Part shown: piece after piece, positions 41,923 through 59,568 of the stretch | Position numbering within the stretch: the stretch's first letter is position 1 | Layout: each line of letters begins with the position of its first letter | NCBI GenBank assembly: GCA_964425075.1 | Contig: CAYRKM010000001.1 | Coordinates: 459,060-523,059 of the forward strand | DNA: 64,000 bases | Direction of reading: 5' to 3' | Source of the DNA: an uncultured Gammaproteobacteria bacterium | Lineage (GTDB): Bacteria > Patescibacteriota > Microgenomatia > Levybacterales > GWA1-39-11 | Notes under the pieces: model-generated | The model's database searches: none | What the model saw: the letters and a program-made list of their open reading frames with translations, nothing else | What the model was told of the DNA's origin: nothing | Made by a program: the position numbers and the translations under genes

Positions 41923-42098
41923 CAGAAAGACAGGTATAAACTCCTTGCATTTGAATTCAAATACGTATATAATAATCCTTACGCAAAATGACGACTTTAA
42001 GGAGGGTTAGTTTGACTACATAAGCTCTAACGGTTAAGGTTTTCTTAATCATCAAAGCGACTGTAGTAGTCGCTTTTTTTGTGGGTTTTAGTTCAAAA

Positions 42099-42148
42099 TA
42101 TACCGACAACTCTTTTGCCAAGCAGAGCTTGTCAGAGACTCTCGGTAT
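42099..42148. repeat. intergenic repeat family B, copy 1 (ataccgacaactct...gagactctcggtat)
   Basis: Same terminal blocks as copies B2-B4 with a different internal hairpin (caagc-aga-gcttg). Overlaps the 5' extension of the tracked rplC ORF. Confidence 0.5.
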
Positions 42149-42173
42149 GTTTTTTAAAACTAGTTTAAAAAAC

Positions 42174-43067
42174 ATGATACAAGCAATATTAGGCAAAAAA
42201 TTGGAACAGACACAAGGATTCCTTCAAAACGGAACACGTATTCCTATGACCAAAATTATGGTTGGGGGAAATGTGGTTTCCCAAATTAAAACCATCGAAA
42301 AAGACGGATATGAAGCTGTTCAACTTGGATTCGGAAATACAAAGAAGGCAGATAAACCAACCCAAGGACACTCAAAAAAAGCGGGGCTCAAAGAGACGCC
42401 TCGTTTTTTTAAGGAAGTAAAGGCTGATAAATTAGAAGGAATTGAAGCGGGAACAGCCATTAATGTAGAAGAAATTTTAGAAGCAGGAGATAGGATTGAT
42501 GTAACTGGAACTTCGAAAGGAAAAGGATATGCAGGAGTAGTCAAAAGACATGGTTTTCATGGAGGACCCAAAACTCATGGTCAGTCAGACCGCCATCGTG
42601 CTCCAGGTTCTATTGGTCAATCTACTACACCAGGACGTGTTTACAAAGGTAAAAAAATGGCAGGTAGAATGGGAAATGAGCAGGTAACTGTTAAGAATCT
42701 TGAGGTTATTGAGGTTAACGGAGAAGAACTTTTAATTAAAGGACTTATCCCTGGTTCAATTGGCTCAATAGTAACAATTACAAGAATTGGAAACAATAAA
42801 AAACATGTAGGTCTTTATCAAGAACCGGTTGCCGAAGAGGTAGTAATAGACGAGAAAAAAGTTGAGGAAGTAGGAGAACCCCTAGTAGAACAAGAAGAAG
42901 CACGGGTTGAGGACGCTGAGGAAGTAAAAGAAGAAATGCAAGCAGAAGCGGCAGCTGAGCAAATTACAGAACCTGCAAAACCTACAGAGGAAGTAAAAAC
43001 AGAAGAAGTAGAGGAGAAAATAGAAGAAGTTAAAGAAGAAACAAAAGAGGAGGAGGAAAAAGCCTAA
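42174..43067 (+). CDS. rplC: 50S ribosomal protein L3 with Glu/Lys-rich C-terminal extension
   Basis: The L3 core starts at MIQAILGKKLEQTQGF (in frame with the tracked ORF from 42081, which would span repeat B1). An ~80-aa acidic/lysine-rich tail follows. Confidence 0.85.
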   Translation: MIQAILGKKLEQTQGFLQNGTRIPMTKIMVGGNVVSQIKTIEKDGYEAVQLGFGNTKKADKPTQGHSKKAGLKETPRFFKEVKADKLEGIEAGTAINVEEILEAGDRIDVTGTSKGKGYAGVVKRHGFHGGPKTHGQSDRHRAPGSIGQSTTPGRVYKGKKMAGRMGNEQVTVKNLEVIEVNGEELLIKGLIPGSIGSIVTITRIGNNKKHVGLYQEPVAEEVVIDEKKVEEVGEPLVEQEEARVEDAEEVKEEMQAEAAAEQITEPAKPTEEVKTEEVEEKIEEVKEETKEEEEKA

Positions 43068-43095
43068 CGTTTTGTAAATTAGCGTTTGGCGTTTA

Positions 43096-43899
43096 GTGAT
43101 TATGGCTGATACAAAAGTTAAAACAATTAAAAAAGTAGCAGCGGTTAAAAAACCAGCTGTTAAAAAAGTTGTGGCAAAAAAAACTACTTCAGTAAATAAA
43201 GTAGCAAAAGCTAAAGAGGCTGTAGTTGTAAAAGAAGCTAAGGTTTCAACCGGTTCTTTGAAAGTTGATGTTATTGGAGCAAATGGTGCAAAGAATGGGA
43301 CTGTTAGCCTTCCAACTGAGTTGTTTGGCATTGTACCTAACAAATCTCTTATAGCTCAAGCTATTCGTGTATATCTTGCAAACCAAAGACAGGGCACTTC
43401 TTCTACAAAAACCAGGGGTCAGGTAAAGGGTTCTACGAGAAAAATTTACCGTCAAAAAGGTACAGGACGAGCAAGACATGGAGCGAACACTGCTCCTATT
43501 TTTGTAGGTGGAGGAATCGCTTTTGGACCTCATCCACGCGACTATTCTTTAAAAATGCCAAAAAAGATGAAAAAGATTGCATTTGCTTCAATCCTTTCTC
43601 AAAAAGCATCAGATGGGGCTATTAAGGTAATTGAGGGAGAATTTAGTGGTAAAACAAAGGATGTTTCAAAGCTACTTAAAACAATGAGTTTGACTAATAA
43701 AACAGGAAAAGCACAGAAAGTGTTATTGGTTATTGGCCAAAATGATAAAAATATCGCAAGGGGAGCACACAATATTGGAGGTTTGTCTATCGAGAGTTCA
43801 GCAACCCTTTCAACCTACCCAGTTTCAATCAGTAAAAATATCATTTTTGTAAAAGACGCGATTAATGATTTAGTTACAAGATATCAAAAAGGAGAATAA
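43096..43899 (+). CDS. rplD: 50S ribosomal protein L4 with Lys/Ala-rich N-terminal extension
   Basis: L4 core (RQGT-STKTRG-V-GS-RK-YRQKGTGRARHG) preceded by a KKVAAVKKPAVKK low-complexity extension. Confidence 0.85.
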   Translation: MIMADTKVKTIKKVAAVKKPAVKKVVAKKTTSVNKVAKAKEAVVVKEAKVSTGSLKVDVIGANGAKNGTVSLPTELFGIVPNKSLIAQAIRVYLANQRQGTSSTKTRGQVKGSTRKIYRQKGTGRARHGANTAPIFVGGGIAFGPHPRDYSLKMPKKMKKIAFASILSQKASDGAIKVIEGEFSGKTKDVSKLLKTMSLTNKTGKAQKVLLVIGQNDKNIARGAHNIGGLSIESSATLSTYPVSISKNIIFVKDAINDLVTRYQKGE

Positions 43900-43901
43900 T
43901 T

Positions 43902-44273
43902 ATGCAGGCACTAGATATTTTAATCAAACCAATTATTTCTGAAAAATCTTTGAGAGACGCACAAACTGGGAAATTTACATTTTTGGTAAATTCAATTGCA
44001 AATAAAACCGAAATAAAGAAAGCAATTGAATCAACCTTTACGGTAAATGTTGAAAAAATAACAACCGTTACGACAAAAGGAAGCACAACAAGAGTCACTA
44101 AATTAGGAAGAAAAACAAAAATATTTAAAAACAAAAAAGCTCGAGTAGTTCTTCGAAAAGGACAAACAATTGATGTCTTTGAAGAACATCTAGGAGGAGA
44201 TGAGAAGAAAGAAAAGAAAGAGAAGAAAGTAGAAAAAAATACCGACAAGAAAGAGTCAAAGGATAATAAATAA
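43902..44273 (+). CDS. rplW: 50S ribosomal protein L23 with Lys/Glu-rich C-terminal extension
   Basis: L23 fold motifs (ILIKPIISEKS, FLVN--ANKTEIKKAIE) plus a KKEKKEKK tail. Confidence 0.8.
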   Translation: MQALDILIKPIISEKSLRDAQTGKFTFLVNSIANKTEIKKAIESTFTVNVEKITTVTTKGSTTRVTKLGRKTKIFKNKKARVVLRKGQTIDVFEEHLGGDEKKEKKEKKVEKNTDKKESKDNK

Positions 44274-44276
44274 CCT

Positions 44277-45014
44277 ATGAAATTAAAAAGAATATTAAAG
44301 AAAAATTCAGGACGGGATAATTCCGGAAGCGTTGTTGTACGTCATCAGGGCGGACGACACAAAAGAATGTATAGACTTATTGATTTTAAGAGAGATAAGC
44401 ATTCAGTAGAGGGAACAATTGTTGGAGTTGAATATGATCCTAATCGTTCAGCTGAATTGGTTTTAGTTCAGTATAGGGATGGGGATAAAAGATACATTCT
44501 TCGTCCATTGGATTTAAATTTAGGAGATAAAGTGATTGCCAATGAAATTACTGACGTAAAAGCTGGAAACACTATGATGCTTAAAAATATTCCCGTAGGT
44601 ACACCAATTCACAATGTTGAATTGACCAAGGGTAAGGGTGGACAGCTTGCAAGAAGTGCTGGGGATCAGGCAAGTGTTATGGCCAGAGAAGATAAATATG
44701 TTCATGTAAAACTCCCTTCAGGTGAAATAAGAAGGATTTCAGGGGACAACTATGCTACAATTGGCCAGCTCTCAAAGGTTGAATGGAAAGATAGAGAATG
44801 GAAGAAAGCGGGAGCAAAACGTCATCTTGGAATAAGACCTACAGTCAGGGGAGTTGCCATGGAGCCGTCTTCTCACCCTCATGGAGGAGGAGAAGGAAGA
44901 AGTGGTATTGGTATGTCTACGCCGAAAACTTTTTATGGTAGACCAGCTGTGGGGAGAACAAGAGATAAGAAAAAATACAGCAATAAATACATAGTAAAAA
45001 GGAGGAAGGCTTAA
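44277..45014 (+). CDS. rplB: 50S ribosomal protein L2
   Basis: [21 protein letters not shown], and C-terminal [10 protein letters not shown] motifs. Confidence 0.92.
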
Positions 45015-45045
45015 GCAGAGCTTGCTTTTGCTAACAAAAGTAATT

Positions 45046-45330
45046 ATGTCACGAAGTTTAAAAAAAGGACCATATGTAGTTGAGAGATTACTGAAAAAAG
45101 TAATGGCTCAAAAAGAATCTGGAGGCAGAGATGTTATCAAAACCTGGGCACGGGCTTGCCAAATTCCACCAGAATTTGTCGGTCACACCCTTGGTGTTCA
45201 TAATGGTAAACATTTTATTAGTGTAAAAGTTGTTGAGGGTATGGTTGGGCACAGACTTGGAGAATTTTCTCCAACAAGGCACTTTAAGGGTCATGGAAGA
45301 GTCGTTGCTCGTGAGATATCAAAGACTTAA
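45046..45330 (+). CDS. rpsS: 30S ribosomal protein S19
   Basis: [11 protein letters not shown] start (the tracked ORF begins 24 nt upstream) and [10 protein letters not shown] motif. Confidence 0.85.
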
Positions 45331-45749
45331 TGAATACTATGGAATATAGAGCAATTGCAAAAAACATTAAAATTTCACCACGTAAGGTGAGGCTTGTGAC
45401 GGATAGCATTCGAGAGTTAACAGTGGCAAAAGCATTAACTCAACTTATGGTGTCTCCAAAAAGAGGCGCAGTTCCTGTTAAAAAAACTATTGAAAGCGCA
45501 ATGGCAAATGCAGTAAATAACAATAATGCAAAAAAGGACGACTTGGTTATTAAAACGATTAATGTAACTGAAGGAATAGCATATAAGAGATATCACTTTG
45601 CAGGACGAGGAAGAACAAGACCATATGTTAAAAAAACAAGCCATATTAACGTGATCTTAGAAGACAAAGCAATAGTTCAAGCTCCAGTTCTAAACAAAGT
45701 AGAGCTTGAGAAAGAGAATAAAACAATTAAAAAAGGAGGAAAGAAATAA
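45330..45749 (+). CDS. rplV: 50S ribosomal protein L22
   Basis: A-A-I-ISPRKVRLV-D-IR start, typical of L22. Confidence 0.85.
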   Translation: MNTMEYRAIAKNIKISPRKVRLVTDSIRELTVAKALTQLMVSPKRGAVPVKKTIESAMANAVNNNNAKKDDLVIKTINVTEGIAYKRYHFAGRGRTRPYVKKTSHINVILEDKAIVQAPVLNKVELEKENKTIKKGGKK

Positions 45750-45822
45750 TTACTAATTAATCTAATTATTCTAATTAAACTAAATTAGAAATTAGAGCAC
45801 TTAGAAATTAGAAATTTTCAAA
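45747..45822. repeat. CTAATT/AATTAG repeat array + TTAGAAATTAGAGC motif (family C, copy 1)
   Basis: taattactaattaatctaattattctaattaaactaaattagaaattagagcacttagaaattagaaatt, upstream of rpsC. Confidence 0.4.
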
Positions 45823-45824
45823 AT

Positions 45825-46469
45825 ATGGGACAAAAAGTTAATCCAATTGCATTAAGAATGGGTATCCACCACGACTTTAAAAGCGTAGGTTATTACCCTA
45901 AAAAGTCATATGCAGTAACAGTTTTGAAAGATATTAGGATTCGAGAGGCTTTAATGAAAAGACTAAAGCCCGCAGGGGTTGGGGATATCATTCTAGAACG
46001 TTCTGCAAGTTCTATAAAAATTACAATTTACGTTATGCGTCCGGGAATTGTGATTGGAAGAGGTGGTTCTGGGCTTGAGGAATTAAAAAAACAAATTGTA
46101 ACTCTTCTTGGTGAGTCACATGTTCCTGGAAAGAGTTCTCAAAAAATTGAACTTAAAGTTGAACCGATTAAGGAACCAAACCTGAGTGCATATTTAGTTG
46201 CAAACAATATTGCAGAACAACTGGCACGACGTATGCCATTTCGAAGAGTAGTAAAGCAAGCAACTGATAGAGTAATGCAGTCGGGGGCAAAAGGCGTAAG
46301 AATTATTCTTGCTGGTCGTATCAATGGAGCAGAAATTGCTAGACGAGAAAGAACACAAACAGGAAAAGTTTCGTTATCAACAATAAGAGAAAATATCGAT
46401 TTTGCAAGCGTTCCTTCGCTTACAAAATCAGGTTACATTGGAGTTAAAGTTTGGATAAACAAAAAATAA
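45825..46469 (+). CDS. rpsC: 30S ribosomal protein S3
   Basis: MGQKVNPIALRMG start, KH domain, and C-terminal GAKG-RI-L-GRI-GAEIAR. Confidence 0.92.
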   Translation: MGQKVNPIALRMGIHHDFKSVGYYPKKSYAVTVLKDIRIREALMKRLKPAGVGDIILERSASSIKITIYVMRPGIVIGRGGSGLEELKKQIVTLLGESHVPGKSSQKIELKVEPIKEPNLSAYLVANNIAEQLARRMPFRRVVKQATDRVMQSGAKGVRIILAGRINGAEIARRERTQTGKVSLSTIRENIDFASVPSLTKSGYIGVKVWINKK

Positions 46470-46522
46470 GCAAAGCTTGCTTTTTGGAAACAAAAAGTAG
46501 CGTTTAGTTTAAAAATAAAATT

Positions 46523-46936
46523 ATGTTACAACCTAGGAAATCAAAATACAGAAAACAATTTAAGCAAAGAAGCCTTCCCGGAATGGCAACAAAAGGGAAT
46601 AGGGTTTCATATGGTGAATTTGGATTGAGAGCTGAAGAGTCAGGACATATTTCAGCCCGCCAAATTGAGGCAGCAAGGCGTGCAATTGTTCATTTTATTA
46701 AAAGGGGTGGACGTGTATGGATTAGAATTTTTCCAGACATGCCTATTACCAAAAAACCGCCAGAAACCCGTATGGGTGGAGGAAAAGGAGATATTGATCA
46801 CTATGTTGCAGTAACAAAAGCTGGACAAATGATTTTTGAAATGGCAGGAGTAACAGAAGAAACAGCAAAAGAAGCATTAAGACTTGCAGGCCATAAATTA
46901 TCAGTAAAATCAAGCTTTATTTCAAAAAACGCATAA
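46523..46936 (+). CDS. rplP: 50S ribosomal protein L16
   Basis: [14 protein letters not shown] start and R-IEAARRA motif. Confidence 0.9.
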
Positions 46937-46945
46937 GGAGAATAT

Positions 46946-47158
46946 ATGAAAAAAAACGACAGAATTGAATTACGATCAAAAACAAAAGAAGAGTTAATAA
47001 AGCAACTACGTGATTTACGTAGCGAAGCGGCAAAATTGTCAATGGATATGACAACAGGAAAAGTAGTAAATACTGCAGAAATTTATAACAAGAAAAAAAT
47101 GATAGCAAGAATACTTACATATCTTGGACAAAAAAAGGAGGAAACAGTAAATGCCTAA
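46946..47158 (+). CDS. rpmC: 50S ribosomal protein L29
   Basis: 70 aa. ELR-KTKEEL---L--LR-E---L motif, located between rplP and rpsQ. Confidence 0.75.
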   Translation: MKKNDRIELRSKTKEELIKQLRDLRSEAAKLSMDMTTGKVVNTAEIYNKKKMIARILTYLGQKKEETVNA

Positions 47159-47486
47159 AACAGTAAAAAAAGTAATAAAAAAAGCTGAAAGCCCTGTCGT
47201 TGTAGAGAAATCTAAAAAGCCAGTCGAGGAAAAAATGAAAGAAGCAAAGAGAAAAACGATTACAGGAAAAGTAGTATCGGTAAAGATGAAAAATACCGTT
47301 GTAGTTGCTGTAGAGAGAAAAGTTGCGCATAAAAAATATGGCAAACTCCTAAAAGTTACAAAGAGATTTAACGTAGATACAAACGGAATGGAAGCAACAG
47401 AGGGAGAGACAGTAGTAATTGAGCAAACACGACCAATGAGTAAAACAAAATATTTTAAATTAGTTTCAAAAGGAGGGAAAGGGTAG
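47151..47486 (+). CDS. rpsQ: 30S ribosomal protein S17 with Lys-rich N-terminal extension
   Basis: Strong SD AAGGAGG 8 nt before ATG 47151. S17 core GKVVS-KM-NTVVVAVER...RPMSKTK preceded by ~28 extra residues. Confidence 0.8.
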   Translation: MPKTVKKVIKKAESPVVVEKSKKPVEEKMKEAKRKTITGKVVSVKMKNTVVVAVERKVAHKKYGKLLKVTKRFNVDTNGMEATEGETVVIEQTRPMSKTKYFKLVSKGGKG

Positions 47487-47492
47487 AATTTT

Positions 47493-47550
47493 ATACCGAC
47501 AACTCTTGCTCAAAAAGCCAACTGGCATTTTGAGCTGAGACTCTCGGTAT
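47493..47550. repeat. intergenic repeat family B, copy 2
   Basis: ataccgacaactcttgctcaaaaagccaactggcattttgagctgagactctcggtat. Inner stem gctcaaaa/ttttgagc around the loop agccaactggca. Confidence 0.55.
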
Positions 47551-47618
47551 AAGCAAAGCTTGCGGTTTAGCAATCTAAATTCTCGCCCAAGGACTTAGAT
47601 TTATAAGGAGCTCGAAAT

Positions 47619-47990
47619 ATGGTACAACACAGAACTATGCTGGTTTCAGCAGACAATAGTGGAGCAAAACAACTACAGGTAATCCAAATTTATGGAGGAT
47701 CAAGTAGACGTTATGGATATATTGGAGAAATGCTTGGGTGTATTGTCAAAAAAGCACTTCCACACAGTCAGTATAAGAAGGGAGATCTTGTAAAAGTTAT
47801 ATTAGTCAGATCTAAGAAAGAAGTAAAAAGAAAAGACGGAATGTATATTAGATTTTCAGAAAATGCTGGAGTTGTAATTGATGAGAAAACAAAAGAGCCA
47901 ACTGGAACTCGTATTTTTGGACCGGTTGCACGAGAAGTAAAAGAAGCTGGATACAGTAAAATTGCAAGTTTGGCTAAGAACGTTGTTTAA
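47619..47990 (+). CDS. rplN: 50S ribosomal protein L14
   Basis: M(V/I)Q-RT-L-VADNSGAK start, 123 aa. Confidence 0.9.
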   Translation: MVQHRTMLVSADNSGAKQLQVIQIYGGSSRRYGYIGEMLGCIVKKALPHSQYKKGDLVKVILVRSKKEVKRKDGMYIRFSENAGVVIDEKTKEPTGTRIFGPVAREVKEAGYSKIASLAKNVV

Positions 47991-48005
47991 AAAGGAAAAA
48001 ATAAT

Positions 48006-48317
48006 ATGAGTTTAAAAATAAAAAAAGGCGATACAGTACAAATAATGTTAGGACGAGATAAGGGTAAAAAAGGTACCGTAGAGAGAGTATTGTCAACTGA
48101 ACGCATGGTTATTGTTGAAGGTATAAATCAAGTGAAGAAGCATTTGAAATCACGACAACAGGGCCAAAAGTCAGAGATTGTAACTCTTACAAAGCCAATT
48201 TCGATTGCAAAAGTGTCATTAATTGATAGCAAAAAGAAAAAACCAACAAGAGTTGGATTTAAAATCGAAAAAGGAAAAAAGATAAGAATCGGACGATTGT
48301 CCGGGGAGGCAATTTAA
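48006..48317 (+). CDS. rplX: 50S ribosomal protein L24
   Basis: [24 protein letters not shown] motif. Confidence 0.85.
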
Positions 48318-48430
48318 TGAAAGTACAAGCATCAGTTAAAAAACGTTGTTTACAATGTAAGATTATAAAAAGAAGGGGGAGGTTACTTGTGATTTGTGAG
48401 AATCCACGACACAAGCAACGCCAAGGTTAA
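48317..48430 (+). CDS. rpmJ: 50S ribosomal protein L36 (zinc-ribbon type)
   Basis: Not in the ORF track because it is under 60 aa. ATG overlaps the rplX stop (taATG). Translation: [37 protein letters not shown], the canonical L36 sequence with the C-x2-C...C-x4-H ribbon. Confidence 0.8.
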
Positions 48431-48432
48431 CT

Positions 48433-48987
48433 ATGACATTTAAAGAAACATTTGAAAAAGAAATAGTAAAAAGCCTTAAAGACAAAATGAAGGTTAATTC
48501 TACTATGGCTGTGCCTAGAGTTAAGAAAATAGTAGTAAATATGAGTTTGAAAGATTTTCTTAAAGACAAGAAAAATATAGAACGTGGTCTTGAGGATCTG
48601 ACTCTTATTACAGGACAAAAACCAAAAATTGCAAAAGCTAGAATTTCTATTGCAACTTTCAAACTTCGAGAGGGAGATAAGATTGGTATGGCAGTAACTT
48701 TAAGAGGACAGAGGATGTATGACTTTTTAGAAAAACTTATTAAAGTTGTATTTCCTCGTGTGAAAGATTTTAGTGGAGTAGACTTGAAAGCATTCGATGG
48801 AAGAGGTAATATATCCGTTGGCTTCGATGAGCATATTGTTTTCCCAGAAATCGATTCAGGAAAAGTAGATGTGTTGCGTTCTTTGCAGGTTACTATCGTA
48901 ACAAATGCACATGACGATGAAAAAGCAAAAATGTTATTAACAGAAATGGGACTACCATTTAAGAAAACCGGAGAAGTAAAAAACTAA
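48433..48987 (+). CDS. rplE: 50S ribosomal protein L5
   Basis: MAVPRVKKIVVNM and GDKIGMAVTLRG motifs. Confidence 0.9.
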   Translation: MTFKETFEKEIVKSLKDKMKVNSTMAVPRVKKIVVNMSLKDFLKDKKNIERGLEDLTLITGQKPKIAKARISIATFKLREGDKIGMAVTLRGQRMYDFLEKLIKVVFPRVKDFSGVDLKAFDGRGNISVGFDEHIVFPEIDSGKVDVLRSLQVTIVTNAHDDEKAKMLLTEMGLPFKKTGEVKN

Positions 48988-48990
48988 ATT

Positions 48991-49176
48991 ATGTCTAAAA
49001 AATCGACAGTTGTAAAACTAAGCAAAAAACAAAAATTCTCAACCCGAGAGGTAAATTTATGCGCTCTTTGTGGAAGAACACGAGGATACATGAGGTTATT
49101 TGGAATTTGTAGAATTTGTTTTAGAGAAAGGGCACTTAAAGGAGAATTTCCTGGAGTGAAGAAAGCGAGTTGGTAA
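48991..49176 (+). CDS. rpsZ: 30S ribosomal protein S14 type Z (zinc-binding)
   Basis: 61 aa with C-x2-C...C-x2-C ([10 protein letters not shown]...CRIC). Confidence 0.85.
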
Positions 49177-49177
49177 T

Positions 49178-49567
49178 ATGACATATCCTGTTGCAAGCTT
49201 TTTAATACAAATAAAAAATGCCTATATGGCAAATAAAAATGAGATGGTCTTTCCTTATTCAAAGACCGTTCTTGCTATTGGAAAAATTTTAAAAGAAGAG
49301 GGGTACATTAAGGACGTAAAAGAAGCAAAAGATGAAAAACGAAATGTAGTAAAAGTTGAGCTTTTGTATCACGGAAATGATAAAGCAATGAGAGATGTAA
49401 AGATTATTTCAAAACCATCAATTCACAGATATATTGGAAAAAATGATGTTAAAAAAATTGTAAGTAGATTTGATTTGGCAATTCTTTCAACAAATCAAGG
49501 AATTATGTCAAACAGAAAAGCATTAAAACTTGGAGTAGGAGGAGAACTTTTAGCAAAAGTCAGTTAA
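49178..49567 (+). CDS. rpsH: 30S ribosomal protein S8
   Basis: Position and motifs (IKNAYMANK, ILKEEGYI, STNQGIMS). Confidence 0.85.
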   Translation: MTYPVASFLIQIKNAYMANKNEMVFPYSKTVLAIGKILKEEGYIKDVKEAKDEKRNVVKVELLYHGNDKAMRDVKIISKPSIHRYIGKNDVKKIVSRFDLAILSTNQGIMSNRKALKLGVGGELLAKVS

Positions 49568-49568
49568 T

Positions 49569-50111
49569 ATGTCAAACATAGGTAAATTACCAGTAACAAT
49601 TGAAGCAGGAGTCGAAGTCAAAAAAGATGGACGAGATCTTACAGTCAGTGGTCCTAAGGGCTCTCTTTTCTTAAAACTTCCTGCAGGAATAGATGTAATT
49701 GTTGCTGATGGTATTGCAACTGTTAAGAAAGAGCACGAAAGCAAGTATTTAGAGAAGTTTTATGGACTATCTCGCGCACTGCTTTCAAATATGGTGAAAG
49801 GTGTTTCAAAAGGATTTGAGAAAAAACTAGAACTTTCAGGAGTCGGATACAGAGCACGAGTTGATGGACACGACTTGATATTAAACGTTGGATATTCTCA
49901 TCCGGTGAAGATTATGGCGCCGGAGGACGTAACTTTTAAAGTAGAGGAAAATGTTATTACCGTTACAGGTGTAGATAAAAGAATTGTTGGAGATATAGCA
50001 GATAACATTAGAAAAGTAAGACCACCAGAGCCCTATAAAGGAAAGGGAATTAAATATGTAGGTGAGAAGATAAGACGCAAAGCAGGAAAGACAGCAAAGG
50101 CTGCAGCGTAG
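49569..50111 (+). CDS. rplF: 50S ribosomal protein L6
   Basis: [15 protein letters not shown], and a duplicated alpha/beta domain structure. Confidence 0.85.
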
Positions 50112-50121
50112 GAGTAAAATT

Positions 50122-50472
50122 ATGAAAAAAGCAGTTTACAATAATTTAAAAACAAAAAGAAGAGTTACAAGAATTCGAAAGAAATTACTTGCTACCTCAA
50201 ACAGACCTAGACTTACTGTCTATCGTTCAAATGTGCATATATACGCTCAAATTATTGATGATAAAAAGGCTAATACGCTAGTTTCTGCTTCATCTAAAGA
50301 GATAAAGGCAACAAAGAAAATGGAACAAGCACAACAAGTTGGGTTATTAATTGCAAAGAAAGCAATTGATAAAAAAATAAAAGAGGTAGTATTTGATAAA
50401 GGTGCTTATAAATTTCATGGGAGGGTAAAAGCTCTTGCAGAAAGTGCACGAGAAGGAGGACTTCAATTCTAG
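50122..50472 (+). CDS. rplR: 50S ribosomal protein L18
   Basis: [16 protein letters not shown] motif, 116 aa. Confidence 0.85.
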
Positions 50473-50543
50473 GGGTCGCAAAATTGGATAAGCAAAGCTT
50501 GCGGACTTTGTCCTAAAGCAAGACTTGTCTACGAATTAAATTT

Positions 50544-50990
50544 ATGGATAACCAATACGACGAAAAAATTGTACAAGTAAATAGAGTTTCTAAAAAAACT
50601 AAAGGTGGAAATAAAATGAGATTTTCAGTTCTTGCTGTTGTTGGGGACCGAAATGGTAAAGTTGGTGTAGGTCTCGGAAAATCAGCAGATGTTGCATCAG
50701 CAATTGCAAAGGCTGTAAGTTACGCAAAAGGACATTTCATTACAGTACCTATTGTTAATGGAACAATTCCACAAGAAATTAGAGTAAAAGAAGGGGCTGC
50801 GGAAGTACTATTAAAACCTGCACCAAAAGGTTCAGGAATTATTGCTGGAGGAGCAGTGAGAAGTGTGGTTGAGGCAGCTGGAATTCACAATATATCATCA
50901 AAAATTTTGGGAACATCAAATAAAGGAAGCAATGTTCATGCAACATTTGCAGCGTTATTAGCATTAAGCAAAAGACAGACTGTAAAATAA
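50544..50990 (+). CDS. rpsE: 30S ribosomal protein S5
   Basis: V-RVSKKTKGG--MRFS-L-VVGD-NG-VG-G-GK motif. Confidence 0.9.
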   Translation: MDNQYDEKIVQVNRVSKKTKGGNKMRFSVLAVVGDRNGKVGVGLGKSADVASAIAKAVSYAKGHFITVPIVNGTIPQEIRVKEGAAEVLLKPAPKGSGIIAGGAVRSVVEAAGIHNISSKILGTSNKGSNVHATFAALLALSKRQTVK

Positions 50991-51008
50991 TATTTTTTCT
51001 TTAAAAAT

Positions 51009-51437
51009 ATGGAACTTAACAAAACAACAACCAAAAAACTAAGACGTCTTGGGCGTGGTTCTGGTTCGGGAAGAGGTAAAACTTCCGGACGAGGAACAAA
51101 AGGACAAAAAGCTAGACGAAATATTGCTCTAGGATTTGAAGGAGGAGCACTTCCTCTTATTAAGAGACTTCCTTTCATGCGAGGAAAGGGTCGCAATAAT
51201 TCCTTACAGGCAAAACCTGTTGTTATTAATGTAAAGGTTCTTGATCTTTTGCCTGCAAAAACTGTTGTTGATATTGAAGCATTAATAAAACATAATATAG
51301 TTGTCCCTTCCGAGGCAAAGAAATTTGGGGTAAAAATTCTAGGTGATGGTGAACTTTCAAAAGCACTTACTGTAAAATTACCTGTTACAAAGTCCGCAAG
51401 GAAAAAAATTGAAAAAGCCGGCGGAAGTGTTTCTTAG
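51009..51437 (+). CDS. rplO: 50S ribosomal protein L15
   Basis: LRRLGRGSGSGRGKTSGRG-KGQK-R motif. Follows rpsE directly, so rpmD (L30) is absent. Confidence 0.85.
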   Translation: MELNKTTTKKLRRLGRGSGSGRGKTSGRGTKGQKARRNIALGFEGGALPLIKRLPFMRGKGRNNSLQAKPVVINVKVLDLLPAKTVVDIEALIKHNIVVPSEAKKFGVKILGDGELSKALTVKLPVTKSARKKIEKAGGSVS

Positions 51438-51448
51438 CATATTCATTT

Positions 51449-52732
51449 ATGAGTAAAATCTTTAATGTCCTTAAGAAAATATTCAAAGACAAAGACTTAA
51501 GGAAAAAGGTACTCATAGTTTTAGCTCTTTTCCTCGTTTTCCGATTCTTTGCGCACATTCCTGTTTCTGGTGTAAATCTTGCGCAATTAAAATCTCTTTT
51601 CGAACAAAATCAATTCTTGGGTCTTATCAATCTCTTGGGTGGAGGTACACTTGCCAACTTCTCAATTCTTGCAGTTGGAATCGGGCCATACATCTATGCG
51701 TCAATCGTGATGCAACTCGCAACTCAAATTTATCCAAAACTTGAAGAACTTCAAAAAGAGGGTGGATATGGAAGGCAGAAAATCAATCAATACACACGCT
51801 ACATCACTCTTCCCTTAGGAGTTTTGCAATCAATTGGAATGTATGCTCTTTTAAGGAGTCAGGGGCTTATTGCAAATCTGGGTCCTTTCGAGTTGGTAAC
51901 ATTTGTTGCAACATTGGTTGCGGGAACTATGCTTGTGCTTTGGCTTGGAGAGCTTATTTCAGAACAAAATATTGGAAACGGTATATCTTTAATTATCTTT
52001 GCAGGTATTGTTGGGCAACTTCCAATTGCGCTTATTCAAGCGGTATCAACCGTAACTCCAGATCAAATTATGAATATGGGACTACTTGCAGCTGCAGGAG
52101 TTTTAATGATTGCGGCAATTGTATTTGTAACAGAGGCTGTTAGAAAAGTACCAGTAATGTACGCAAGACGTATAAGGGGAGGAAGAAGTGAAACTGCGCA
52201 GCAAACATTCCTACCACTTAGACTAAATTCAGCAGGGGTTGTGCCAATTATTTTTGCAGTTTCTATTGTTCTTCTTCCATCATTAGTTTCAAATTATCTT
52301 ATTGCAGCAAAAAACCCAAACTTCGCGTCAATTGGACAATTTTTAGCAGCCAATTTTTCAACCACAAGCGTTGCATATAACGTTGTCTACTTTTTATTGA
52401 TTTTCGGATTTACATATTTTTATACTGCAATTGTTTTCCAACCACAGAAAGTATCAGAAGATATTCAAGAAAATGGGGGGTTCATCCCAGGTATTCGTCC
52501 AGGTAAACCTACTGCAAGTTACCTTAATTTTATTGTTACAAGAATCACTTTGGTAGGAGGATTGTTCTTGGGAATTGTTGCGATAGTCCCAAACATATTG
52601 CAATCCCTTACAGGTATTCAAGCATTAATCGTTGGAGGAACAAGTATTTTAATTGTTGTGTCAGTTGTTATAGAGAGTGTTAAAATTTTCCAAACTCAAT
52701 TAGTTACACGTTCTTACGATAGGTTTCTATGA
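51449..52732 (+). CDS. secY: preprotein translocase subunit SecY
   Basis: 427 aa and 10 TM helices, with conserved GI-PYI-ASI---L and GTS-LI motifs. Confidence 0.9.
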   Translation: MSKIFNVLKKIFKDKDLRKKVLIVLALFLVFRFFAHIPVSGVNLAQLKSLFEQNQFLGLINLLGGGTLANFSILAVGIGPYIYASIVMQLATQIYPKLEELQKEGGYGRQKINQYTRYITLPLGVLQSIGMYALLRSQGLIANLGPFELVTFVATLVAGTMLVLWLGELISEQNIGNGISLIIFAGIVGQLPIALIQAVSTVTPDQIMNMGLLAAAGVLMIAAIVFVTEAVRKVPVMYARRIRGGRSETAQQTFLPLRLNSAGVVPIIFAVSIVLLPSLVSNYLIAAKNPNFASIGQFLAANFSTTSVAYNVVYFLLIFGFTYFYTAIVFQPQKVSEDIQENGGFIPGIRPGKPTASYLNFIVTRITLVGGLFLGIVAIVPNILQSLTGIQALIVGGTSILIVVSVVIESVKIFQTQLVTRSYDRFL

Positions 52733-52793
52733 TGTACTCAGCATATGAGCGTGAGCGAAATATAATTTCCAAAATTATGAATATATATCTTAA

Positions 52794-52853
52794 TTATACC
52801 GTTAACCCTTGGGTCGAATACCAACTGGCATTCTCCCCAGAGACTCCCGGTAT
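52794..52853. repeat. intergenic repeat family B, copy 3
   Basis: ataccgttaacccttgggtcgaataccaactggcattctccccagagactcccggtat. Shares the loop motif (a)ccaactggca and the terminal taccg...cggtat. Confidence 0.5.
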
Positions 52854-52898
52854 CTTTCGCAACCAAGGACTTTTACTACAAAAGGGGGTATGCGAAAG

Positions 52899-53435
52899 AT
52901 GAAAATTATATTAATTGGTATTCAAGGTAGTGGGAAATCAACGCAGGGCAATTTATTATCTCAAAAACTTAATATTCCTTATCTTTCAACCGGCCATATT
53001 TTTCGTGAAATGGCAAAGGAGAAAACCCCAATGGGAAGATATATTAAAGAAACAATCAATGCTGGCGTTCTAATCCCTGATGAGAAAACTCTTCCAATAG
53101 TAACCGAATATTTATCACGTTCTGAATACAAAAACGGATATATCCTTGACGGTTTTCCAAGGACAGTAATTCAGGCTGAAGAGTTTGTGAACGGAATTAA
53201 TTATGTTGTTTACCTTAATGTTTCTGACAGGGAGGCATTGTGGAGGCTTTCTTACAGGGAAGACGAAAGGGAAGATGAAACATTACTAGCATTAAGGAAA
53301 AGAATTGAAATGTTTCATGAATTTACCAAACCAGTCCTTGAATATTATCGAGAAAAAGGCATTCTTGTTGAAATAAATGGAGAGAAGGAAATTCAAGAAA
53401 TTCACGAAGAAATACTAAGAAACATACAAAAGTAG
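52899..53435 (+). CDS. adk: adenylate kinase
   Basis: MKIILIGIQGSGKSTQG P-loop, NMP-binding GHIFRE, and a short LID. The tracked ORF (52809) extends over repeat B3. ATG 52899 has an appropriately spaced AAGGGGG SD. Confidence 0.85.
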   Translation: MKIILIGIQGSGKSTQGNLLSQKLNIPYLSTGHIFREMAKEKTPMGRYIKETINAGVLIPDEKTLPIVTEYLSRSEYKNGYILDGFPRTVIQAEEFVNGINYVVYLNVSDREALWRLSYREDEREDETLLALRKRIEMFHEFTKPVLEYYREKGILVEINGEKEIQEIHEEILRNIQK

Positions 53436-53440
53436 ATCTT

Positions 53441-54007
53441 GTGAAGAAAAGATACATCATAGGAATATCTGGAGCATTTGGTAGCGGAAAATCAACTGCA
53501 GCAGATTATTTTGAAACCAAAGGATATAAAAAAATTTACCTTTCCTCTTTCCTCGAAAAAGAAGCTCTCAAACGCAAACTTCCCTTAACTAGAAAAATCC
53601 TTCAAGATATTGGAAATGAATTTCGAGAAAGAAATGGTTCAGGCGTACTTATGAAGAAAGCCTTAACAAGGCTTAAAAATAATGAAAAAATAGTAATTGA
53701 CGGAATAAGAAATCTTGGAGAAATAGAGGAATTAAGAAAAGTTAAGAATAGTATTATTGTTGGGATTGTTGCAGACAGAAACATTAGATTTGATCGTTTG
53801 AAGAAATTAAAAAGAAGGGAAAAGCTTAACGAAGAGTTGTTTTACAAATTAGACTTGCGTGATTTGGGCGTAGGTGAGAAAATAACTGGTCTTCAAACTG
53901 CAATCTGCATTGCTCTTGCTGATGTTTATATAGATAGCAATGGTAAGTTTGAGGACTTTTACGAAAAATTAGACAAATTTTTACGAGGTTACGAAAAGGC
54001 ATATTAA
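53441..54007 (+). CDS. P-loop nucleotide kinase, dephospho-CoA kinase (CoaE)-like
   Basis: GTG start. IGISGAFGSGKSTAA P-loop as in CoaE and related NMP kinases. 188 aa. Confidence 0.5.
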   Translation: MKKRYIIGISGAFGSGKSTAADYFETKGYKKIYLSSFLEKEALKRKLPLTRKILQDIGNEFRERNGSGVLMKKALTRLKNNEKIVIDGIRNLGEIEELRKVKNSIIVGIVADRNIRFDRLKKLKRREKLNEELFYKLDLRDLGVGEKITGLQTAICIALADVYIDSNGKFEDFYEKLDKFLRGYEKAY

Positions 54008-54020
54008 ACTTTAAACAACT

Positions 54021-54701
54021 ATGAAAAACAGTTTACAAATAGCAATTGATGGACCAGTGGGTTCCGGAAAAGGAACACTAGCTGTAGCTTTGGCTGGAAG
54101 GTTGGATGCTATACACATATATACAGGGGGAATGTATAGGGCCTTAGCACTTGCATGTCTTCGCAAAAATATAGATATCCACAATAATAAAGAGGTCCTG
54201 CAGGTTCTAATGGAAATAGAGATTGGTATGAAAGTGGGAGCGGATTCTCATACTCGAATTATTTTAGATAATGAAGATATTACTGATGAAATTTTTTATC
54301 CTCAAGTAAGCAACATTACTCCAATTACTTCTGCATATCCTGATGTTCGCGAAGAAATGGTTAAAAGGCAAAAAGCGCTTGCTATGGGAAGGCGCGTGGT
54401 TATGGAGGGTAGAGATATTACAACAGTTGTTCTACCAAATGCTGATCTTAAGGTTTTTTTAACTGCTGATATTGATATTAGAGCCCAGAGAAGATGGAAT
54501 CAATTAAAAGAAAAAGAAGTCACAATTGATTTTGAAAATGTAAAAAAAGATATTGAGAAACGCGATAATGCTGATAGCAAAAGAGATACATCCCCATTGC
54601 TGCAAGCAGAGGATGCCTTCATCATTGATACATCTCATGATACTATTGAGGAAACCGTTGAAAAAGTAGTAGGAGAGCTTCAAAGGAGAGATCTTATATG
54701 A
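54021..54701 (+). CDS. cmk: cytidylate kinase
   Basis: IAIDGPVGSGKGTLA start and Cmk-type insert/LID (GRDITTVV). Confidence 0.8.
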   Translation: MKNSLQIAIDGPVGSGKGTLAVALAGRLDAIHIYTGGMYRALALACLRKNIDIHNNKEVLQVLMEIEIGMKVGADSHTRIILDNEDITDEIFYPQVSNITPITSAYPDVREEMVKRQKALAMGRRVVMEGRDITTVVLPNADLKVFLTADIDIRAQRRWNQLKEKEVTIDFENVKKDIEKRDNADSKRDTSPLLQAEDAFIIDTSHDTIEETVEKVVGELQRRDLI

Positions 54702-55471
54702 TTAACGACAAGACTAGAAAAAAAATTGAGGTCATGCGTGAAGCTGGAAAAATTCTTGGCGAGGTTTTGTTTGAAGTAATGAATGCAATAAAACCAGGAG
54801 TAACCGAAATTGAGCTTGATAAACTTGCTGAACGTCTAATTTTAGAAAAAGGGGCAGAACCGGGATTTAAAAAGGTTGATGGGTACGAGCATTCTATTTG
54901 TGTATCTACGAATGACGTTGTCGTTCATGGAATTCCAAAAGATAGAGAGTTGAAAAATGGAGATATTATCGGTGTTGATTGTGGAGTTTATCTAAATGGA
55001 TATCATACTGATATGGCTGAAACCAAAATTGTGGGTGAAACAAGCAATCCTGAAGTAGTGCGTTTTGTAGAGGCTGGCAAAAAGGCTATGTTTGCAGGTA
55101 TTCGTCAGGCAAAAGTTGGACGTCGAGTTGGGCACATTTCTCAAGCAATGCAGGAAGTAATGGAGGGAAGTGGGTACTCTGTAGTAAAAAGTCTGGTGGG
55201 TCATGGAGTAGGAAAAGAGCTTCACGAAGAGCCTGAAATCCCAGGATATTTGGAAAAAGAGCTTCGAAAAACCCCAATTTTAGAAGATGGAATGACCCTA
55301 GCAATTGAGGCTATTTATAATATGGGTAAGGCTGGGGTAGTATATGAGGGAAGCGATGATTGGACGATTTCTTCCTCTGACGGAAGTCTTGCTGGGCTTT
55401 GCGAAAGAACTATTTTAATAACACCTGATGGTCCTGAGCTTATTACATATTTCCCCGGAGAGACAATTTAA
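54698..55471 (+). CDS. map: methionine aminopeptidase type I
   Basis: M24A pita-bread fold with metal-ligand-containing blocks (VHGIP, GDIIGVDCG, GYHTDMAET, HGVGKELHEEP, LAIEAI). Confidence 0.88.
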   Translation: MINDKTRKKIEVMREAGKILGEVLFEVMNAIKPGVTEIELDKLAERLILEKGAEPGFKKVDGYEHSICVSTNDVVVHGIPKDRELKNGDIIGVDCGVYLNGYHTDMAETKIVGETSNPEVVRFVEAGKKAMFAGIRQAKVGRRVGHISQAMQEVMEGSGYSVVKSLVGHGVGKELHEEPEIPGYLEKELRKTPILEDGMTLAIEAIYNMGKAGVVYEGSDDWTISSSDGSLAGLCERTILITPDGPELITYFPGETI

Positions 55472-55607
55472 TCCTAGCCTTGAATAGCTTCAAGATTTCT
55501 GGTAGAATAGCATGTAATTGTTTTGCGTTGAGGCTTACTTTAATGTATAATACTTCAGCCTAAAAACAATTTTTTTGTATGGCGCTGGATATGAAAATAT
55601 TCAAGCC

Positions 55608-55715
55608 ATATGAAGAATGATTATACCGCAAGGTATATGAAGAATGATTATACCGCAAGGTATATGAAGAATGATTATGCCGCAAGGCATATGAAGGATG
55701 ATTATGGCGCATCAA
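55608..55715 (+). repeat. 27-bp tandem repeat (3 copies + parental copy) duplicating the infA start-codon region
   Basis: (c/t)atatgaagaatgattataccgcaagg x3, then catatgaaggatgattatggcgcatcaaggg, which contains the infA ATG. Confidence 0.6.
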
Positions 55716-55922
55716 GGGTCGATAGAAATAGACGGAGTAGTTCGCGAGGTATTACCAAATACATTATTTAGGGTTGAATTAGAAGGAGGAAAGGTAATAC
55801 TGTGTCACTTATCGGGGAAGATGAGGATTTATTTTATAAAAATAATGCCAGGAGATAAGGTAAAAGTAGAAATGACCCCCTATGATACCGAGCGAGGAAG
55901 GATAACATATCGTTACCGTTAG
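55698..55922 (+). CDS. infA: translation initiation factor IF-1
   Basis: 74 aa with the S1-like OB fold (G-V-E-LPN--FRVELE-G--V--H-SGKMR...GD-V-VE-TPYD---GRI). Confidence 0.88.
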
Positions 55923-55977
55923 CAAAAGCTTAAGGGTAAGGTTTCCTACCGCTAAGTTTTTTATCTCAAAATAAATT

Positions 55978-56370
55978 ATGCGTGTTGCAGGTGTAAATAT
56001 ACCAGAACAAAAAAGAGTCGATAGGGCTTTAGCCTACATCTATGGTATTGGTCCAAGCAATGTACTTGAAGTACTAAAAACAGCTGGAATTGATGCTTCA
56101 AGACGACTTAAAGACTTAACAGAGGATGAAGTGGTTAGGGTTCAGAAAGCAATTGAGGTTATCAAAACTGAGGGAGATCTTCGGGCCGAAGTTATAGGAA
56201 ACATTAAAAGACTTAAAGAAATTAGTGCCTACAGAGGGATTAGACATGCAAGAAATCTTCCTTCAAAAGGACAAAGAACAAGAAGCAACGCTCGTACTAA
56301 AAGAGGAAAAAGAGTCACTATTGGTGCAATTAAGAAAGAAATGGCTGAAAAAATGGCAGCAGCCAAGTAG
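55978..56370 (+). CDS. rpsM: 30S ribosomal protein S13
   Basis: MRVAGVNIP--K-V--AL--IYGIG start, 130 aa. Confidence 0.9.
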   Translation: MRVAGVNIPEQKRVDRALAYIYGIGPSNVLEVLKTAGIDASRRLKDLTEDEVVRVQKAIEVIKTEGDLRAEVIGNIKRLKEISAYRGIRHARNLPSKGQRTRSNARTKRGKRVTIGAIKKEMAEKMAAAK

Positions 56371-56375
56371 GTATT

Positions 56376-56434
56376 TATACCGACAACTCTTGTTCAAATA
56401 GCCAACTGGCAATTTGAACTGAGACTCTCGGTAT
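56376..56434. repeat. intergenic repeat family B, copy 4
   Basis: ataccgacaactcttgttcaaatagccaactggcaatttgaactgagactctcggtat. Inner stem gttcaaat/atttgaac co-varies relative to B2. Confidence 0.55.
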
Positions 56435-56474
56435 ATTTAAAAAAAAGGACTTTTATTTATAAAATTTTTTAAAT

Positions 56475-56864
56475 ATGGCAAAAAAAGTAGTAGCTAAAAA
56501 ACAAAGACCAACAATTACAACCGGTAACGGTAAATTATTTGTATCAACTACATTTAATAATACAATTGTTACTATCACTAACGAAAAAGGAGATGCTATA
56601 GCATGGAGTTCTGCAGGAAATGCTGGATTTAAAGGAACTCGAAAATCTACTCCATTTGCAGCCACATCTGCAGTTGAGGAAGCTATAAAGAAAGCAAAAG
56701 AAATTGGCGTTAATTCGGTTGAGGTATTTATTAAAGGACCAGGAGTTGGACGGGATGCATCACTACGAGCTATAAGAAACTCAGGTCTTTCTATTTCTAT
56801 GATTGCTGATGTAACTCCCATTCCACATAATGGGCCACAAGCAAAGAAAAAAAGGAGAGCATAA
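56475..56864 (+). CDS. rpsK: 30S ribosomal protein S11
   Basis: V-I--TFNNTIVTIT---G-A--WSSAG--GFKG-RKSTPFAA motif. Confidence 0.9.
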   Translation: MAKKVVAKKQRPTITTGNGKLFVSTTFNNTIVTITNEKGDAIAWSSAGNAGFKGTRKSTPFAATSAVEEAIKKAKEIGVNSVEVFIKGPGVGRDASLRAIRNSGLSISMIADVTPIPHNGPQAKKKRRA

Positions 56865-56877
56865 ACATTAAGTAAAT

Positions 56878-59565: not shown

Positions 59566-59568
59566 GAT

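Follow-up and report, generated by a model that had tools for sequence, protein, structure and literature searches.

Structured elements that fold as hairpins beside genes are known from several systems. The RNase III signals of phage T7 (R1.1 type) are hairpins of ~20 bp that recur, all in one orientation, between the cistrons of long polycistronic RNAs, with an asymmetric loop of 4/5 nt between stems. The Correia elements of Neisseria lie in either orientation, with a TA duplication and in hundreds of copies. In phage T4, genes 25 and 38 each feature a hairpin between the Shine-Dalgarno sequence and AUG of that single gene, and the synthetic RiboJ insulator joins a processing signal to a downstream hairpin in which the ribosome-binding site is displayed. 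One published account credits Correia elements with the capacity to generate promoters and to serve as targets for RNase III binding or cleavage (PMC2649163). Here, we describe a two-hairpin RNA cassette in a 64-kb stretch of DNA (contig CAYRKM010000001.1, positions 459,060 to 523,059; hereafter the window) from a bacterium that is labelled an uncultured gammaproteobacterium and placed by GTDB in the Levybacterales. Its first hairpin shares with the T7-type signals a two-turn intercistronic hairpin with an asymmetric loop, and its second helix ends at the start codon of the next gene.

The repeats were first noticed as a conserved intergenic element of ~58 nt upstream of rplC, rplN, adk, and rpsK. 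All four copies are present on the + strand, with starts at 42100, 47493, 52796, and 56377; the positions in the initial annotation were essentially right but took in the preceding T, and the downstream genes (rplC at 42174, rplN at 47619, adk at 52899, and rpsK at 56475) are those it had named. In 64 kb, exactly four occurrences of the 3' end, GAGACTCYCGGTAT, are found where 0.25 would be expected, a number that none of 100 shuffles attains, and the 5' end, ATACCGNNAACNCTT, has four matches in the window with zero mismatches. The reported size applies to the first hairpin (H1) in the copies termed B2, B3, and B4, but the whole element is about twice as long because a second helix (H2) had been overlooked. 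In every window copy, the sequence right after the closing CGGTAT of H1 is complementary to the sequence just before the ATG of the next gene, an arrangement that B2 keeps after a 27-nt secondary insertion. The cassette as a whole has two hairpins and spans ~75-125 nt of RNA, and the window repeats correspond to its first hairpin.

About 45 copies of this cassette, with a common layout, occur across at least 11 Levybacteria genome bins. H2 has zero linker after H1 and zero linker before AUG; its 3' strand forms the spacer from Shine-Dalgarno to AUG, and the Shine-Dalgarno itself sits in the loop. Across 32 leaders, the anchored strands pair at 7.66 of 11 positions, against 4.77 when 5' and 3' partners are mixed (0 of 20000 permutations). 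In an alignment of 34 copies, 70.5% of H2 cells are paired in register versus 34-52% when the partner is slid, and the covariation score is 0.570 versus 0.184 (0/500). Even the outermost pair, between the first base after H1 and the last base before AUG, is variously AU (15), UA (12), CG (3), or GC (1). There are at least seven different outer-stem sequences, all of which pair, though the independent events are fewer than the cells counted because subfamilies of the cassette share ancestry. Two classes of H2 loop are recognized. Class-1 loops read (G/U)YUCGC-NC-AAGGACUU-(AU-rich)-GGA-(G/U)YUC(G/A)C, with a conserved tandem U-C mismatch between covarying pairs, and class-2 loops read ACAAAUUAGAUAUAUUUAAAGGAAG.

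H1 likewise folds into one architecture in all copies. From the bottom, it comprises P1, AUACCG(A)/(U)CGGUAU (6-7 bp); an asymmetric internal loop of 4/5 (or 3/4) nt (5' strand NNAA, 3' strand ACUC(Y)); P2, CUCU/AGAG (4 bp, with a bulged U); and P3, an upper stem of ~8 bp that is variable in sequence and always keeps its pairing. The 58-nt forms add a 3-bp apical stem under a RACY tetraloop. The suggestion that compensatory changes mark a selected RNA secondary structure is borne out: in an alignment of 35 copies, the covariation score of H1 is 0.279 versus 0.091 when shuffled (0/500), and 82.9% of cells are paired in register versus 28-43% with a slid partner. Within the P2-P3 helix, eight of 12 pairs change on both sides, and one position is GC in 20 copies, UA in 12, and CG in one.

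The individual window copies illustrate both constancy and variation. B1 is a short variant, its 49-nt H1 (42100..42148, + strand; 44.1 bits and E 2.6e-12 with the covariance model; fold z-score -4.1) having an unchanged base, ATACCGACAACTCTT ... GAGACTCTCGGTAT, and a short upper stem. The inner stem is caagc aga gcttg and has no CCAACTGGCA apex; the central loop (A)GCCAACTGGCA, originally ascribed to all copies, is present in B2, B3, and B4 only. H2 of B1 (42149..42173, + strand; 10 bp, GTTTTTTAAA / TTTAAAAAAC) exactly fills the interval between H1 and the rplC ATG. As the true rplC start is this ATG at 42174 rather than the GTG of the long open reading frame (ORF), B1 lies wholly upstream of the gene and does not overlap its 5' end, as had been thought. 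In B2, a 58-nt H1 (47493..47550, + strand; 72.6 bits) starts 6 nt past the rpsQ stop and is parted from H2 by the 27-nt insertion (AAGCAAAGCTTGC...; 47551..47577, + strand), a member of a different small repeat; H2 (47578..47618, + strand) holds AAGGACTT and the Shine-Dalgarno AAGGAG in its loop, and its 3' strand reaches the rplN ATG. B3 lies 63 nt past the secY stop (H1 52796..52853, + strand; 58 nt, 65.6 bits), and its 8-bp H2 (52854..52898, + strand; CTTTCGCA / TGCGAAAG), with AAGGACTT and GGGGG in the loop, reaches the adk ATG, a start that was fixed by comparison with the L004 orthologue (related loci are numbered with an L throughout). B4 starts 6 nt past the rpsM stop (H1 56377..56434, + strand; 58 nt, 73.4 bits; fold z-score -5.0), followed by a 10-bp H2 (56435..56474, + strand; ATTTAAAAAA / TTTTTTAAAT) with AAGGACTT in its loop that reaches the rpsK ATG. 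B2 and B4 are 90% identical, and their inner stems differ by two double changes that keep pairing; the pair singled out earlier, gctcaaaa/ttttgagc in B2 versus gttcaaat/atttgaac in B4, is confirmed by the sequences.

The small repeat that interrupts B2 starts with (AT)AAGCAAAGCTTG(C/T) and is a separate element. It occurs in the window at 46466, 47549, and 50488, in L023, and in L034, where the site is filled relative to an empty one in L038, and it acts as an insertion after ...TAT. In L023 and L034, the repeat parts H2 from the original ATG, and a new downstream ATG is used.

The cassette is confined to one lineage in our searches. Scanning one genome per GTDB species with a strict pattern yielded 34 matches in 31 loci, all of them in bins labelled Candidatus Levybacteria or Levyibacteriota, or in evidently mislabelled "uncultured Gammaproteobacteria" bins that share the same genes. 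This distribution points to a Levybacterium as the source of the window, whose organism occurs in SRR14271365 and SRR14271372. Exhaustive pattern scanning finds no more than nine copies per genome bin, a low number that fits a regulon better than a proliferating repeat. The covariance-model search added one further full copy (L021:3311) and left an empty gap between E 1e-12 and E 10, while a metagenome scan in which P1 was left free returned seven loci, six of them true copies (four distinct sequences) and one a chance match. The cassette is in sense at 40 of 42 unique sites, where it ends 11-78 nt upstream of a start codon; all copies are co-directional with the flanking genes, and inside operons the stop of the upstream ORF usually falls 1-12 nt ahead of H1. 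Two local arrangements are worth recording. At L003 344-520 (nusG-rplK), H2 abuts the ATG of a 21-codon ORF, and the rplK ATG follows ~75 nt later, past another hairpin. In L019, a stretch that weakly resembles a tRNA (6278-6349; 33.9 bits, no ARAGORN call) stops 7 nt short of an H1 copy.

Downstream of the cassette are 31 gene families, of which 14 are ribosomal proteins (L3, L14, S11, L11, L1, S14, L23, S3, L20, S9, L33, L17, L24, and L36) and 20 belong to the translation or transcription apparatus, with the addition of EF-G (fusA), TypA, GlyRS (glyS), PheRS-beta (pheT), a TsaB-like protein, and NusA. The others are chaperones and insertion factors (GroEL, Hsp20, and YidD), nucleotide metabolism (Adk, a nucleoside phosphorylase, and a NUDIX protein), envelope and sugar metabolism (MurA, UDP-glucose dehydrogenase, a family-4 glycosyltransferase, and a 2-hydroxyacid dehydrogenase), and one family of unknown type. 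The enrichment in ribosomal proteins is P ~1e-9 to 3e-8 in a binomial test with an assumed genome background of 6-8%.

Promoters place the cassette within RNA. Upstream of B1 are a sigma-70-like promoter, TTGACT-17-TAAGGT (42012-42040, + strand), which matches only eight of 12 consensus positions, and then a hairpin with a T-run (42054-42076, + strand), so that B1 falls within the rplC 5' leader. Other copies at operon starts also have sigma-70-type promoters 5' of H1, such as TTTACA-17-TATAAT (L011), TTGATA-17-TATAAT (L033), and TTGACA-18-TAGACT (L007). Where 10-11 of 12 positions match (L007, L011, L012, L014, L024, L028, and L033), the -10 ends 6-71 nt before H1, and a hairpin with a T-run often follows the promoter. 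With promoters upstream, H1 and H2 would be transcribed, in 5' leaders or in intercistronic RNA; this agrees with the initial annotation, which had placed the copies in 5' leaders, and all of those in the window are sense-oriented in mRNA leaders or intercistronic spacers. The T-run hairpin is itself recurrent. Leaders before fusA (5716-5847), before rplC (42012-42085), and in L031 (1-38) consist of a promoter, a T-run hairpin, 9-17 nt, and ATG, with no Shine-Dalgarno. This leader hairpin is found with or without an inserted cassette and could be an attenuator or a 5'-end stabiliser.

Judging from sequence and folding, we see about an even chance that the cassette is a cis-acting post-transcriptional module with a host-level function, and this is the reading we favor. 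Beyond the observed structure, anchoring, polarity, gene set, transcription context, and gain and loss, we infer an RNA-level function, a trans-acting factor, and a choice between cleavage and repression. The base of H1 is fixed in sequence and the upper stem only in pairing, which suggests that something reads the base; H2 closes all spacing from base to AUG, which suggests that binding or cutting would affect either initiation or the downstream cistron's 5' end. The invariant base may be where a sequence-specific trans-acting factor docks or cleaves, that factor being most likely either an RNase III-type endonuclease that would cut the asymmetric loop or an RNA-binding repressor. H2 would hold the Shine-Dalgarno-AUG region of the next gene directly against the H1 site and gate it, and binding or cleavage would determine how stable the downstream cistron is and how well it is translated, without regard to the upstream one. 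Two versions of this mechanism are about equally likely. In the first, the cassette would provide endonucleolytic "punctuation" of long operon transcripts: after a cut in ACUC|Y, the upstream mRNA would keep a 3' hairpin and the downstream mRNA would have H2 within ~7 nt of its 5' end. In the second, it would be a translational operator for a global factor. The cassette probably spread by duplication or insertion as a unit and was kept mainly before genes of the translation apparatus.

How the cassette comes and goes among relatives bears directly on this reading. At rplC, the site is filled in the window and empty in L031, with H1 and H2 placed exactly between "...aaat" and ATG. The rpsQ-rplN spacer is 132 nt in the window versus 0 nt in L031, and the rplE-rpsN spacer is 3 nt in the window versus 108 nt, with a cassette, in L031; L015 retains a remnant at this last position, where only ATACCGTTAACTCTT and TGATAT are left before the rpsN ATG. 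The fusA site, empty in the window, carries the cassette in L014 and L028. Junctions at empty sites are tight, with spacers of 0-3 nt. The cassette is gained and lost whole, as one unit. Between rplV and rpsC and between rplM and rpsI, the window features an unrelated AT-rich hairpin where relatives have a cassette (L031 and L015 at rpsC; L030 at rpsI), which suggests that the two are interchangeable intercistronic elements. The AT-rich hairpins form a family of their own, TTACTAATTAA.CTAATTATTCTAATT ... AGAAATTAGA..., at 45750-45824, 59472-59568, and 10975-11060, and they probably correspond to the family A of the initial annotation.

The sequence of retained copies is also informative. Nine gene positions are common to distant genomes, and eight of these pairs can be scored for synonymous divergence (pheT excluded). 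In seven of these, four-fold degenerate sites are saturated, at 28-53% identity; the remaining one, murA from closer relatives, is at 76%. Across the nine orthologous pairs, 28-33 of 33 positions in the H1 base are identical, while the middle of H1 is at 38-100% (38-68% in seven of nine) and H2 at 46-86%. The groEL copies are identical at 58 of 58 H1 positions. H1 and H2 types co-occur as three whole-unit subfamilies. The first combines an AT-rich P3 and CCAACUGG apex with class-1 H2 and includes B2 and B4 of the window; the second combines a GC-rich P3 with class-1 H2; and the third combines an H1 of 64-66 nt with class-2 H2.

The same observations leave a real possibility, though a minority one in our estimate, that the cassette is a selfish insertion resembling a miniature inverted-repeat transposable element (MITE), with no host function, that survives only where it is harmless. 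On that account, the stacked hairpins loop out and keep the stop codon or leader adjacent to AUG, the element brings its own Shine-Dalgarno, and structure is kept only against damage. Such an origin is compatible with the filled, empty, and remnant sites at rplC, rplN, rpsN, rpsC, and fusA, with the tight junctions at empty sites, with the joint variation of H1 and H2 as whole units, with the two copies that have no downstream gene, and with H1 arms that resemble imperfect terminal inverted repeats. It would also accommodate L011 (1650-1790), where the cassette upstream of typA follows a diverged duplicate of that gene's own first 24 nt (17/21 identical; 0/200 shuffles), resulting in an upstream ORF that reads through H1. 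This is the only copy of 40 flanked by a duplicated gene start that could be a long target duplication; the others are not significant.

Several results argue against a purely selfish element. Presence/absence polymorphism, one hallmark of MITEs, is evident at rplC, rplN, rpsN, and fusA and in the 15-nt L015 remnant, but the other two, target-site duplication and insertion in either orientation, are missing. The filled/empty pair at rplC ("...caaaat" then H1-H2 then ATG, versus "...ctaaat" then ATG in L031) has no duplication, and the 5' flanks of the copies share no fixed motif. No solo ends and no parent or long elements are present in 312 kb; over the same 312 kb, nhmmer with filters off found no decayed or intermediate copies except the 15-nt remnant (L015:7455), so a decay series is almost absent; and the strict pattern has no match in viral contigs. 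A selfish origin also leaves unexplained the limit of nine copies per bin, the strict polarity, the invariance of H1 at orthologous sites with saturated synonymous positions, and the enrichment in operons that are essential and highly expressed, from which selection should remove selfish insertions. For much the same reasons, a generic MITE or repetitive extragenic palindromic (REP) element, for which the initial annotation predicted random orientation and location without covariation, is contradicted by strict polarity and by the covariation itself. Its REP-like option holds insofar as the cassette is dispersed, with filled and empty sites, and fails on low copy number, strict polarity, and a start-codon anchor foreign to REPs. 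The abundance, both orientations, and mostly 3' location of RAYT-associated REP and bacterial interspersed mosaic elements (BIME) are replaced here by at most nine copies per bin, sense orientation at 40 of 42 sites, and a position 5' of the start codon.

Other points weigh against the host-level module that we favor. P1 and P2 are invariant, so their pairing cannot be proven through covariation and rests on folding; in the metagenome scan with P1 left free, all true copies kept P1, with one bulge, one mismatch, and no compensatory change. Ascertainment bias contributes to the constancy of the H1 base, as 25 of its 33 positions were fixed by the search pattern; nevertheless, the P1-free search yielded only four further unique copies, all retaining P1, and the lack of intermediate copies indicates that the invariance is not due to ascertainment alone. 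Two copies (L017 and L018) follow a stop codon and have no sense gene downstream. Empty sites and the remnant in relatives imply that no single copy is essential, and the whole-unit subfamilies look like the master-copy amplification of mobile repeats. RNase III normally demands less sequence identity than H1 shows. Finally, cleavage or factor binding is something that we purely infer.

A bolder form of the favored reading, which we offer tentatively and consider doubtful, is that, in a phylum of the candidate phyla radiation, one shared RNA operator unites the translation apparatus into a post-transcriptional regulon that spans the lineage. A single factor, whether a protein or a small global signal, would read the H1 loop and co-ordinate the translation or mRNA stability of ribosomal-protein, elongation-factor, tRNA-synthetase, and chaperone genes. 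If true, the regulon would be a bacterial counterpart of the eukaryotic 5' terminal oligopyrimidine (5'TOP) system, with the cassette as a building block open to copying in front of further genes. To our knowledge, almost nothing is known of gene regulation in candidate-phyla-radiation bacteria, which have very few recognisable regulators and, as far as we know, cannot be grown alone.

The remaining alternatives assign the cassette a different role. It is unlikely that it serves as a mobile expression cassette that creates internal promoters, as Correia elements do. Here, the class-2 H2 loop of the long-H1 subfamily (ACAAATTAGATATATTTAAAGGAAG) would supply a -10 (TATATT/TATACT), with a -35-like hexamer after H1. 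The spacing is suggestive: TATAYT lies 19-22 nt before ATG in 10 of 11 class-2 copies (15 nt in the other), and in nine class-2 copies a hexamer at 16-18 nt brings the match to 8-10 of 12 positions, with TTGAAA in L003b and L028. Yet the 5' strand of H2, which includes the putative -35, covaries with the strand before ATG, which places both in one RNA; several class-2 copies have a stronger promoter upstream of H1; the resulting 5' untranslated region would be ~14 nt with no Shine-Dalgarno; and class-1 copies, including all of those in the window, have no room for a promoter.

Quite unlikely in our view is a signal at the level of transcription, with H1 as an intrinsic terminator or attenuator, or as a nut/put-like processive antitermination site for long housekeeping operons. 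The GC-rich subfamily does have UAUUUUUCU right after H1, and two adjacent hairpins recall the put RNA of phage HK022. The AT-rich subfamily, including B2 and B4, has no U-tract, nor does B3; H1 is missing from the terminator-scan list, none of the four window copies being terminator-like; and the base of the stem is rich in A and U and is broken 6-7 bp up by an internal loop. As for nut/rrn antitermination, there are boxA-like words, ACUCUUG in H1 and CGCUC in H2, but these are partial and no exact boxA (UGCUCUUUA or CGCUCUUA; PMC2724277) is found. The presence of several copies within one operon and the exact abutment to AUG point to translation rather than elongation control.

We regard as very unlikely the proposal, raised by the initial annotation, of a classical autoregulatory leader in which one ribosomal protein binds H1 as a mimic of its rRNA site. 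Enrichment in ribosomal-protein operons and a conserved internal loop beside a start codon would be in keeping with it, but confinement to one operon fails, occupancy varies between related genomes, and the same sequence precedes at least 17 non-ribosomal gene families, among them groEL, hsp20, murA, adk, UDP-glucose dehydrogenase, fusA, nusA, and aminoacyl-tRNA synthetase genes (glyS and pheT), as well as yidD, typA, NUDIX, and family-4 glycosyltransferase genes. Nor does any Rfam leader match. With Rfam 15 at the gathering threshold, only a tRNA reaches score in the whole window; at E up to 10, the 41900-57000 region gives two chance matches elsewhere and no family at the cassette, whether ribosomal-protein leader, self-cleaving ribozyme, EAR, riboswitch, or any other. 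Alpha_RBS appears as a 16-bit chance match elsewhere in the window, and a scan of 37 related loci found tRNAs only, with no rRNA. Least probable of all is a ligand or temperature switch, with the H1 loop as a small aptamer (sensing, for example, (p)ppGpp or Mg2+ as a global cue) or H2 as an AU-rich thermometer that gates Shine-Dalgarno-AUG, since the invariant internal loop, the weak, AU-rich H2 that ends at AUG, and the presence of groEL and hsp20 among the targets are offset by a plain H1 hairpin with no evident alternative fold, no covariation backing a switch, and a gene set far wider than heat shock. Resemblances to a K-turn, loop E, hairpin-ribozyme loop B, CsrA GGA, and pairing of an ACUCC loop with the Shine-Dalgarno were read by eye, have no support from variation, and are leads only.

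The window contains other elements outside of the cassette. It is 36.8% G+C, with no L30 gene in the ribosomal cluster, and rpmJ (L36) lies between rplX and rplE rather than after infA (48318-48432; also L031 6056-6186). Between rpsJ and rplC, the usual S10 operon is divided by an opposite-strand insertion at 41269-41922 (- strand), a gene for 217 aa that carries two NUMOD3 motifs (Pfam E 5.7e-17); NUMOD3 is a DNA-binding module tied to homing endonucleases. A 27-nt tandem repeat (55602-55705; 3.9 copies, 93% matches) lies upstream of and extends into infA. Its units copy the start region of infA (ATGAAGAATGATTATACCGCAAGG), give rise to several upstream ATGs (in-frame or short), and form a mini-hairpin, ATACC-GCAA-GGTAT, with a compensatory change in the third unit (ATGCC-GCAA-GGCAT). 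Lastly, a repeat of ~100 nt (CTCATTCACTGAAAGATCCGGCAGTTCACTTC...) with no Rfam match lies 3' of genes at ~8060-8200 and 27470-27600 (88% identity) and probably at 37430-37560.

Regardless of which reading holds, the cassette is a strongly supported structured RNA element placed with nucleotide exactness against the start codons of key housekeeping genes. If it is a processing or operator site, a minimal genome would co-ordinate ribosome synthesis with one reusable RNA part, and the cassette would offer a compact, naturally occurring module that joins an insulator to a ribosome-binding site. Should it be only a tolerated insertion, RNA folding would let it sit in tightly coupled operons without breaking them.

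The literature we searched holds nothing on such an element in Levybacteria or Microgenomates, and each of the described systems matches the cassette in part. Like the T7 RNase III signals, it contains an intercistronic hairpin of ~22 bp, in one orientation, with an asymmetric 4/5 loop, although cleavage here is putative; unlike them, the loop and its flanks are invariant across species, a second helix is anchored to AUG, and the element is chromosomal and is gained and lost. It resembles Correia elements, as characterized in the account cited above (PMC2649163), in that both are dispersed, co-transcribed inverted repeats beside genes that differ by presence and absence; it departs from them in having at most nine copies per bin, strict polarity, no duplication, and a helix that ends at a start codon. 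REP/BIME, ERIC, pneumococcal BOX, RUP, and SPRITE (PMC3049150) are similarly small interspersed intergenic repeats that fold as RNA, but they are abundant, occur in both orientations, and feature neither nucleotide-exact placing at start codons nor enrichment in ribosomal operons. Ribosomal-protein leaders in Rfam (S10/L4, spc/S8, Alpha_RBS, and others) share with the cassette a structured RNA at initiation regions of ribosomal-protein operons, though each serves one operon and one protein, whereas the cassette precedes more than 30 gene families, many of them non-ribosomal. In the plastid intercistronic expression element (PMC2230500), a short module makes operon RNA stable and translatable, as the cassette may do if its putative processing occurs; neither this element nor RiboJ has a sequence or family relationship to it. 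As in the split ribosome-binding sites of T4 genes 25 and 38, a hairpin loops out sequence and brings distant elements to AUG, but the unit looped out here is a conserved, multi-copy cassette. Overall, the cassette is akin to dispersed structured intergenic elements and to cis-acting leaders, and it sets itself apart from both by a double hairpin anchored at the start codon.

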